A stretch of DNA of 64,000 bases from Escherichia phage JLBYU40. The DNA lies in the sequence record NC_105514.1. The stretch is one strand, 5' to 3'. Under the pieces are notes generated by a model, which saw only the letters and a program-made list of their open reading frames with translations, was not told the DNA's origin and ran no database searches. Positions 3,856 to 8,508 of the stretch are shown here, one piece after another. How positions within the stretch are numbered: position 1 is the stretch's first letter; every line of letters starts with the position of its first letter. A program made the position numbers and the translations under genes.

Positions 3856-3932
3856 TGGTAGGGGTGGTGGGATTCGAACCCACAAAACCTGAATTTTAAG
3901 TCCAGTACCTATGCCAATTCGATTACACCCCC
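3856..3932 (-). tRNA. tRNA with UAA anticodon but short variable arm (identity uncertain)
   Basis: Acceptor GGGGGTG/CACCCCT, anticodon arm CTGGA-CTTAAAA-TTCAG, T-arm GTGGG-TTCGAAT-CCCAC, CCA encoded; D-arm poorly paired. Confidence 0.45.
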
Positions 3933-3939
3933 GTGTAAT

Positions 3940-4128
3940 TTAGTCAATTACTTTTGAAGCTTCAAGGTAGTCGATATAGTGTACGTTTTCTACCGTAATC
4001 ATATAATCTGCCACTTTATCCATAGCTTGGGCTTCAGAGGTAGCTCTGGCTAACCTATATCCTTTTTTATATTCATCAGAGTATTCTCTATCTTGAATAA
4101 ACACAACATAAACTACGTATAATTCCAC
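3940..4128 (-). CDS. hypothetical protein (about 62 aa; GTG start inferred)
   Basis: The 111-aa ORF in the track runs into tRNA genes; AGGGGG then GTG at about 4128 gives a tRNA-free CDS. Confidence 0.3.
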   Translation of the reverse strand: MELYVVYVVFIQDREYSDEYKKGYRLARATSEAQAMDKVADYMITVENVHYIDYLEASKVID

Positions 4129-4150: not shown

Positions 4151-4225
4151 GTGGCTCCCCGAGGATTCGAACCTACGTACCTTCCGGTTATGAGCCGGGT
4201 GCTCATACCATATGAGCTTGAGAAC
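4151..4225 (-). tRNA. tRNA with CAU anticodon (Met or Ile2)
   Basis: Acceptor GGTTCTC/GGGAGCC, D-stem GCTC/GAGC, anticodon arm CCCGG-CTCATAA-CCGGA, T-loop TTCGAAT; no encoded CCA. Confidence 0.5.
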
Positions 4226-4231
4226 CAAAAT

Positions 4232-4320
4232 CTGGCGGAAGAAGTGGGAATCGAACCCACAAGGCTATATTTCAAACCGACAGATTAGCAATCTGCTGCA
4301 ATACCGTTATGCTATTCTTC
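4232..4320 (-). tRNA. tRNA-Ser (GCU), long variable arm
   Basis: Acceptor GGAAGAA/TTCTTCC, anticodon arm GCAGA-TTGCTAA-TCTGT, long variable arm, T-arm GTGGG-TTCGATT-CCCAC, CCA encoded. Confidence 0.65.
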
Positions 4321-4342
4321 CGAATTTATAAGATATATTATA

Positions 4343-4864
4343 TTAGAAATTTAGCTTCATAGCAAGAAAATTTTTCAAGTTTTCGGTAGACATCTCATCT
4401 ACATCTACAGGAGAAACAAAGCCGTTTAATTTTCTAGCAAATTTTTCACCATCGGGATCATTGTCTCCAACAGCTACCAATTTAAAAGGTAGTAATTTCA
4501 GTTGCTTTAATAACGCTTTTCCTGGAGAAGAACCCAACATTGCTAGGGCTGGATAACCAGCGTTATGTAACGCAACTGCCTTAAATACAGATTCAGCAAT
4601 CAATACTACTTTTTCATCTCCATTGAGAGTTTCTAGTCCCCATACACACTGGGTAGTAGAATAAGTAAAGTATTTAGCTTCAAAGGGGCACTTACCATGA
4701 CCTTTTGGAGCAGAAGGATTATAAGTTTGATAGCCCCTCAACATCCCAGAGAAGTCATACAACGGGACTGTTAGCCATCCTTCTGGACTTAACCAGCAAT
4801 GATATTTATCTGTATCAAATCCCCTAGATAAGAGGTGCTGTGTTAGCTCATCAACATTCATATT
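4343..4864 (-). CDS. Toprim-like domain protein (hypothetical)
   Basis: Motifs IAESVFK and LVAVGDNDPDGEKFARKL resemble a Toprim acidic patch; start moved to MNVDEL. Confidence 0.4.
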   Translation of the reverse strand, partial: NMNVDELTQHLLSRGFDTDKYHCWLSPEGWLTVPLYDFSGMLRGYQTYNPSAPKGHGKCPFEAKYFTYSTTQCVWGLETLNGDEKVVLIAESVFKAVALHNAGYPALAMLGSSPGKALLKQLKLLPFKLVAVGDNDPDGEKFARKLNGFVSPVDVDEMSTENLKNFLAMKLNF

Positions 4865-8433: not shown

Positions 8434-8508
8434 CTTACCGACCGTAGGATTCGAACCTACATCTTCCACCAGTTACGGCTTGATAATACCAATTATACTA
8501 GGACGGCA
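8434..8508 (-). ncRNA. unresolved tRNA-like element
   Basis: T-arm GTAGG-TTCGAAT-CCTAC and partial acceptor pairing, but no canonical anticodon arm found. Confidence 0.25.

Follow-up and report, generated by a model that had tools for sequence, protein, structure and literature searches.

A conserved type-I tRNA-Leu(UAA) of a T5-like phage and its short-armed relatives in other phages

The tRNA gene and its neighbourhood

The DNA analysed here is a window of 64,000 nucleotides from Escherichia phage JLBYU40 (NC_105514.1), and positions given without a locus prefix refer to this whole stretch. On its minus strand, at 3856-3932, it carries a 77-nt tRNA-Leu(UAA) gene of class-I (type-I) architecture with an encoded CCA end, which is recovered by ARAGORN and by Rfam and is annotated in phage records. 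ARAGORN calls a 77-nt tRNA-Leu(taa) at exactly these positions, with the anticodon at position 35, and the Rfam model RF00005 matches the interval over its full length with 57.4 bits (E = 1.3e-10; gathering score 29), with zero non-canonical pair flags and posterior probabilities that are near-maximal through the anticodon arm. In RNA sense, the gene reads GGGGGUG UA AUCG AAUUGGCAU AGGU A CUGGA CUUAAAA UUCAG GUUUU GUGGG UUCGAAU CCCAC CACCCCU A CCA. The molecule has the attributes of a canonical tRNA, namely a cloverleaf scoring above the Rfam gathering threshold, a 7-nt anticodon loop and U33, together with that of a type-I tRNA, i.e., a variable region of 4-5 nt with no arm hairpin. This region, GUUUU (tRNA positions 44-48; 3884-3888, minus strand, delimited by Rfam), ends in U48, which can form the Levitt pair with A15. 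A stringent 47-nt class-I Leu pattern has one match in the window as against none in 100 shuffles; the minimum free energy fold of the single sequence is a non-cloverleaf (z = -1.2), which is usual for tRNAs and uninformative.

The anticodon arm consists of a 5-bp stem (CUGGA/UUCAG) closing the loop C32-U33-UAA-A37-A38 (3895-3901, minus strand), in which ARAGORN and Rfam agree on the anticodon U34-A35-A36 (3896-3898, minus strand), reading UUA and UUG by wobble. The triplet A36-A37-A38 is the MiaA (i6A37) determinant of tRNAs that read UNN codons. A reading of the gene as a suppressor or recoding tRNA was rejected: the anticodon UAA reads UUA, whereas it is the anticodon UUA that would read the stop codon UAA, and the loop is of the standard 7-nt kind with U33. 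A preliminary description of this DNA had picked out the same clean arm (quoted there as CTGGA-CTTAAAA-TTCAG, which are minus-strand strings) with the anticodon UAA, as well as the 77-nt length and the 5-nt variable arm of class I, all of which ARAGORN and Rfam bear out. Its worry that the register might have been mis-set proved needless, for the Rfam covariance model gives the same register and reveals no overlooked long arm; neither an alternative register nor a hidden arm finds support from either program.

The gene belongs to a cluster of T5 type, whose order along the minus strand is a promoter-like site, tRNA-Ser(GCU), tRNA-Ile2(CAU), a small ORF, tRNA-Leu(UAA) and further small ORFs. 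The promoter-like site (TTGCTA-17-TATAAT; 4337-4365, minus strand), recognised purely by its match to the sigma-70 consensus, occupies the position of the annotated T5 promoter P15b and probably starts the tRNA/small-ORF transcription unit. Upstream of tRNA-Leu(UAA) in the same unit are the tRNA-Ser(GCU) (4233-4321, minus strand; ARAGORN and Rfam), a class-II tRNA that has kept its long arm, and a tRNA with the anticodon CAU (4152-4226, minus strand; Rfam, 40.3 bits), which is the T5 tRNA-Ile2, annotated there as tRNAI2(CAU). The latter has an irregular T-stem and was missed by ARAGORN. The small ORF that lies between tRNA-Ile2 and tRNA-Leu(UAA) (3940-4128, minus strand) is present both in the annotation and in the ORF list and corresponds to oldekolle_101. 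Elsewhere in the window, another tRNA-like Rfam match (8436-8507, minus strand; 35.5 bits), also missed by ARAGORN, aligns poorly in its anticodon arm; its position immediately past tRNA-Arg(UCU) is the one that the T5 and BF23 annotations give to a stable 'RNAX'.

The window is that of a T5-like phage: the kilobase surrounding the gene shares 99.6% identity with Salmonella phage oldekolle (Demerecviridae, Tequintavirus) and has matches in 417 phage records. The 77-nt gene itself recurs with at least 99% identity in 290 phage records, usually annotated as tRNA-Leu and in one GenBank record as 'tRNA-Xle', and the tRNA-Leu annotation of the window gene already stands in the databases for hundreds of T5-like genomes. 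The gene is absent from some relatives. In an alignment of window positions 3856-4128 with T5 (L263:9380-10063), the HNH endonuclease gene hegA stands precisely in place of the small ORF and tRNA-Leu(UAA), with flanks that are ~97% identical and homology that restarts with the tRNA's terminal 7 nt, CCTACCA; the BF23 annotation likewise has hegA at this position and lacks the Leu(UAA) gene. In T5, it seems that a homing-endonuclease cassette has taken the place of an accessory tRNA. Since T5 and BF23 carry hegA instead, the tRNA-Leu(UAA) gene is dispensable at least in some hosts.

Identity elements and the leucine codons of the phage

The preliminary description had set the short variable arm against the rule that bacterial tRNA-Leu is of class II, and had offered, as the alternative to a mis-set register, an atypical tRNA whose aminoacylation identity was not obvious. 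The long variable arm, the hallmark of bacterial tRNA-Leu, is indeed not present in the window tRNA (5 nt), and class I is atypical; but the rule is not without exception, in that Streptomyces coelicolor possesses a type-I tRNA-Leu(CAA) that is charged by its LeuRS. The doubt as to identity can be answered, as the full identity set of E. coli LeuRS is present and points to leucine.

[quoted passage not shown] All determinants of the E. coli enzyme are found in the window tRNA, viz., A73 (3859, minus strand), the major determinant, U8-A14, A15-U48, G18G19, A20a, and a 3-bp D-stem with G13.A22. The D-arm in which most of these reside (tRNA positions 10-25; 3907-3923, minus strand) is of Leu type, AUC-G13-A14-A15-U-U-G18-G19-C-A20a-U-A22-GGU, with G13.A22 as a mismatch. 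Further, the T-loop has the nucleotides for U54-A58, G18:U55 and G19-C56, tertiary pairs whose formation is predicted from the sequence, and the anticodon UAA falls within the leucine set (NAG or YAA). The molecule aligns end to end with the E. coli tRNAs leuZ, leuW and leuT except for a clean 8-10-nt deletion of the arm hairpin, and the geometry of its D-region (17 nt) is the same as theirs.

The specificity of this signature was gauged on 79 distinct tRNAs drawn from the window, four other phages and E. coli: the D-arm motif combined with U48 and A73 is found in 10 of the 11 tRNA-Leu and in none of the 68 other tRNAs. Pairwise identity over the whole molecule does not separate the isotypes (Leu, Ser, Arg and Gln all at 0.68-0.71). 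Isotype profile HMMs were built from ~3000 tRNAs with the anticodons masked and with a Leu model derived from class-II tRNA-Leu only, and give support that falls short of being decisive. When the variable region is excised, the window tRNA scores 43.1 bits with Leu as against 32.7 with Cys, 32.0 with Met and 31.4 with Lys, in a classifier that is ~75% accurate on controls and that ranks Leu first for 11 of 11 tRNA-Leu queries. With the variable region retained, Lys (37.6) and Leu (37.3) tie, and a homologue from Pseudomonas phage ZC08, considered below, scores higher with Lys than with Leu; the tie comes about because the class-II Leu model penalises the deletion of the arm. From these features, we strongly infer a leucine identity for the window tRNA. 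Two other identities were examined and rejected, alanine in view of G3-C70 rather than G3.U70, and serine in view of the lack of a long arm and a discriminator that is A73 rather than G73.

This identity is matched by the codon usage of the phage. Across 51 window ORFs and a 49-kb sample of E. coli, computed alike, UUA (21.5 per 1000) ranks first among the leucine codons of the window with a share of 26%, as against 11% in E. coli, and CUA reaches 22% as against 2%. These two codons, the most enriched of the leucine codons relative to the host, are precisely those that the anticodons UAA and UAG decode.

Class-I tRNA-Leu in other phages

A comparison with the tRNA sets of related phages, one of the checks proposed in the preliminary description, was run and finds short-armed tRNA-Leu in several phages, with the window gene annotated as tRNA-Leu. 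The earlier characterisation of the gene as an atypical phage tRNA is apt to the extent that class I is atypical for a bacterial-type tRNA-Leu, but the type is widespread in phages and tRNA arrays. One case is a second leucine slot of the T5-like phages, which follows tRNA-Ala directly on its downstream side. In T5 this slot holds an 85-nt class-II Leu(UAG) whose variable arm is AGCUUAAAUGCGU (L263:4625-4709), whereas it is occupied by a 77-nt class-I Leu(UAG) in BF23 (L001:3992-4068) and in oldekolle (L010:9607-9682). Oldekolle has two tRNA-Leu genes of ~76 nt, one corresponding to the window UAA gene and the other, beside tRNA-Ala, aligning with the BF23 UAG gene. Because the sequences are quite diverged, the difference between T5 and BF23/oldekolle is a replacement and not a simple deletion. 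The class-I and class-II architectures are thus interchangeable at the Leu(UAG) slot. The annotation of BF23 tRNAL1, in a record prepared by the group that studied the BF23 tRNAs, states that changing its anticodon to CUA gives an effective amber suppressor, the inserted amino acid not being stated there. As this class-I tRNAL1 functions as a suppressor, at least one class-I tRNA-Leu of the T5 genus is charged and used by E. coli ribosomes.

Beyond oldekolle, 77-nt tRNA-Leu are found in BF23 (UAG), Vibrio phage JSF10 (UAG), Aeromonas phage AhP_Mru1 (UAA) and Proteus phage M4H10_20, the last with UAA and UAG versions in tandem. Pseudomonas phage ZC08, an N4-like member of the Schitoviridae that is unrelated to T5, has a class-I Leu(UAA) 81% identical to the window gene in a cluster that also has a class-II Leu(UAG) (L002:1236-1319 and 1499-1575). 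The ZC08 gene suggests that the class-I gene has spread horizontally between phage families. We define the family to which these molecules belong by the Leu D-arm motif, an NAR anticodon, a 5-nt variable region ending in U48, a canonical T-arm and A73, all of which the window tRNA has.

A first scan of viral sequences in IMG/VR used a fixed-spacing pattern of the class-I Leu body, in which an NAR anticodon was required and A73 was not part of the pattern. The class-I Leu pattern occurs on at least 120 viral contigs (IMG/VR) and at least 120 genome contigs, and ARAGORN resolves the IMG/VR set into at least 175 distinct viral class-I tRNA-Leu, which between them have six of the six leucine anticodons. 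Among the matches listed, A73 is found in 175 of 175 viral class-I tRNA-Leu, compared with 56% of the non-Leu tRNAs from the same loci. Since the NAR requirement is circular with respect to the question of identity, the viral scan was repeated with the anticodon free; leucine anticodons then accompany the body in 109 of the 118 distinct matches listed from viral contigs (92%).

The conservation of the family was assessed on 139 distinct sequences of fixed geometry, with a median pairwise identity of 65%. Every stem pair is canonical in 94-100% of them and is represented by 3-6 pair types, whereas 13:22 is never canonical; U8, A14, A15, G18, G19, A20a, U33, A35, U48, A58 and A73 are 98-100% conserved. 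Functional tRNAs held to leucine-type constraints would be expected to look like this. The variable loop of the window tRNA, GUUUU, is the commonest one in the phage family (26/139).

Loss of the arm is peculiar to leucine. In the viral loci listed, none of 116 tRNA-Ser are of class I (116/116 being class II) and only 2 of 57 tRNA-Tyr are (55/57 being class II), while tRNA-Leu is often of class I, as expected if the arm can be spared only in tRNAs whose synthetase does not rely on it. The two architectures of tRNA-Leu frequently coexist, class I and class II being found together in 51 of 108 viral loci among the matches listed.

Several further observations arose from these scans. On bacterial-genome contigs (loci L142-L261), class-I tRNA-Leu are found, among others, in isolate assemblies of several Chryseobacterium species, Tumebacillus, Microbulbifer and cyanobacteria; dense tRNA arrays (1.35 tRNA per kb; median of 7.5 tRNAs per locus of at most 8 kb) harbour nearly all of these genome-contig matches, many of which are on MAG fragments. 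Seven distinct class-I tRNAs in IMG/VR (L131-L135 and L138-L141) combine a Leu-type D-arm (ACGAAUUGGUAGAGU), U48 and A73 with the Glu anticodons UUC/CUC. Bacterial LeuRS takes no notice of the anticodon, so in principle these tRNAs could place leucine at GAA/GAG; alternatively, they may simply be the tRNA-Glu of a lineage with a similar D-arm. In another IMG/VR sequence (L137), the body is very close to that of E. coli Leu and the anticodon is UUG (Gln). Finally, class-I tRNA-Leu of the IMG/VR family with the anticodon UAG have A37 in 52 sequences and G37 in 17, and in the alignment the E. coli leuW (UAG) and leuT (CAG) have G37. In the CUN-reading tRNA-Leu of E. coli, G37 is methylated to m1G37, which guards the reading frame. 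The phage UAG class-I tRNAs with A37 may hence be modified and decoded differently.

Function, alternatives and known counterparts

The window holds a genuine type-I tRNA-Leu(UAA) that is conserved and represents a known but rarely discussed kind. The best explanation for it, which we hold with a probability of about 0.8, is that of a functional type-I phage tRNA-Leu(UAA) leucylated by the host LeuRS and decoding UUA/UUG, in which charging, expression and benefit to the phage are the predicted elements. It would be transcribed from the minus-strand tRNA/small-ORF cluster, after which the host leucyl-tRNA synthetase would attach leucine by way of A73 and the Leu-specific core (U8-A14, A15-U48, G18G19, A20a, the 3-bp D-stem and G13.A22), the enterobacterial enzyme reading neither the anticodon nor the long arm. 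The charged tRNA would then decode UUA, along with UUG, and supply the most-used leucine codon of an AT-rich phage, which is a minor one in the host. Aminoacylation or tRNA-seq results for the window tRNA were not found in the literature.

A proposal that would add to this explanation, and that we regard as doubtful, concerns the reason for the short arm. Under it, the long arm would have been repeatedly lost from the tRNA-Leu of phages and mobile arrays as a means of escaping host toxins or nucleases for which the arm is the mark of a type-II tRNA, such that the host tRNA-Leu is inactivated during infection and the phage copy keeps working. This would be an apparently undescribed adaptation, and one open to leucine alone, since bacterial LeuRS can dispense with the arm and SerRS cannot. 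The proposal would accommodate the commonness of class-I tRNA-Leu in phage contigs and dense tRNA arrays as well as its coexistence with class-II versions noted above; but neutral loss suffices, given that the arm is superfluous for LeuRS and that its loss is confined to Leu, and T5 has itself retained a class-II Leu(UAG). Among potential agents, the toxin MenT3 is a precedent for recognition of the arm and human SLFN11 is cited as cleaving type-II tRNAs, yet other tRNAs, e.g., tRNA-Ala, are the reported targets of the bacterial Schlafen examined to date. It has been published that phage tRNAs evade anticodon nucleases by sequence changes, but an enterobacterial defence targeting tRNA-Leu via the arm was not found in the literature, and to our knowledge none is known. 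Neither the bacterial Schlafen paper nor the eLife paper on phage tRNAs contains anything on the architecture of tRNA-Leu.

A second alternative, which we deem improbable, is that the RNA is no substrate of the host LeuRS, or a poor one, being either a tRNA-like RNA with another role (a nuclease decoy, a processing signal or a primer) or a decaying gene. [quoted passage not shown] The S. coelicolor tRNA is an imperfect proxy for the phage molecule, because it has C48 and is without the A15-U48 pair needed by E. coli LeuRS. The absence of the gene from T5 and BF23 would also fit such a reading, but 290 genomes carry the sequence at 99% identity or more, and it retains an intact cloverleaf, the encoded CCA and every universal tertiary nucleotide. 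Likewise, several tRNA-like stable RNAs of unknown function are annotated in the T5 tRNA region; set against these are the compensatory covariation of the family and its invariant A73, U33 and A35, which a decoy would not need, the in vivo activity of the class-I BF23 paralogue as a suppressor, and the fit of the anticodon to the most-used leucine codon of the phage.

Charging with a different amino acid, for example, lysine on account of a Lys-like body, with UUA being partly recoded, is very improbable: the 'tRNA-Xle' label and the HMM scores obtained with the variable region retained are what recommend it, but the Lys signal disappears without the arm-deletion penalty, the D-arm is of Leu type (3-bp stem, A15, A20a) as against the 4-bp D-stem of the tRNA-Lys genes examined, the UAA anticodon should be rejected by LysRS, alanine is excluded by the lack of G3.U70, and the body is tied to leucine anticodons in 92% of the anticodon-free matches listed. 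Anticodon recognition is the norm among synthetases for class-I tRNAs, and LysRS relies on U35.

Returning to the reading of a functional tRNA-Leu(UAA), the window gene belongs with the normal, conserved accessory tRNAs carried by T5-like phages, and its likely leucine identity is readable from known rules. A prior description of type-I tRNA-Leu in T5 or other phages was not found in the literature searched, the coverage of which probably leaves out the T5/BF23 tRNA papers of the 1980s, and the prevalence of short-armed tRNA-Leu in phages is the only moderately novel point. A review describes tRNA-Leu as long-armed everywhere except in animal mitochondria (PMC9976931), and bacterial type-I tRNA-Leu has been called rare, in an article that does not mention phages (PMC6614811). 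In contrast to such a 'rare' or mitochondria-only view, hundreds of distinct type-I tRNA-Leu are present among the matches listed from viral and genome contigs, nearly all in dense tRNA clusters. For annotation, the 'tRNA-Xle' label and the Lys/Leu tie illustrate that isotype models can be confused by such molecules. For the rules of identity, phage type-I tRNA-Leu constitute natural experiments in LeuRS recognition, and for phage biology they bear on the debate over whether tRNAs are carried for codon supply or for evasion of tRNA-targeting defences.

Among known systems, the tRNA-Leu(CAA) of S. coelicolor, which is leucylated in vitro by the single ScoLeuRS (Fan et al., NAR 2019, PMC6614811), is alike in having a 5-nt variable loop in a bacterial-type tRNA-Leu that coexists with type-II tRNA-Leu alongside one LeuRS. 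It differs in being chromosomal and apparently essential, whereas the phage gene is accessory, and in its rules: its loop is ACAGC (C48), it has no A15-U48, and A73 is not an identity element for ScoLeuRS, while the phage tRNA has both A15-U48 and A73, i.e., the E. coli rule set. E. coli leuZ has the anticodon UAA, A36-A37-A38, G1.U72, A73, the 17-nt D region and G13.A22, with A14, A15, G18G19, A20a and U48 also common to the phage tRNA; but leuZ is 87 nt long with a 15-nt variable arm, as against 77 nt and 5 nt, and the two are ~68% identical. BF23 tRNAL1(UAG), from a phage of the same genus, is a 77-nt class-I molecule that shares the D-arm motif and the GUUUU loop, and is set apart from the window gene by its UAG anticodon, different locus and 71% identity; T5 tRNAL1(UAG) departs further, being the 85-nt class-II version at the BF23 tRNAL1 slot. 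The tRNA-Leu(UUR) of animal mitochondria is also of type I, decodes UUR and draws its identity mainly from A73 and A14 with no long arm (PMC9976931), but it is organellar, structurally floppy, served by a dedicated mitochondrial LeuRS and unrelated by descent to the phage gene. A further parallel is offered by engineered armless E. coli tRNA-Leu, which are charged by E. coli LeuRS if A73 and the D/T-loop contacts are kept (PMC9976931): those were made in the laboratory, in contrast to the natural and conserved phage gene.
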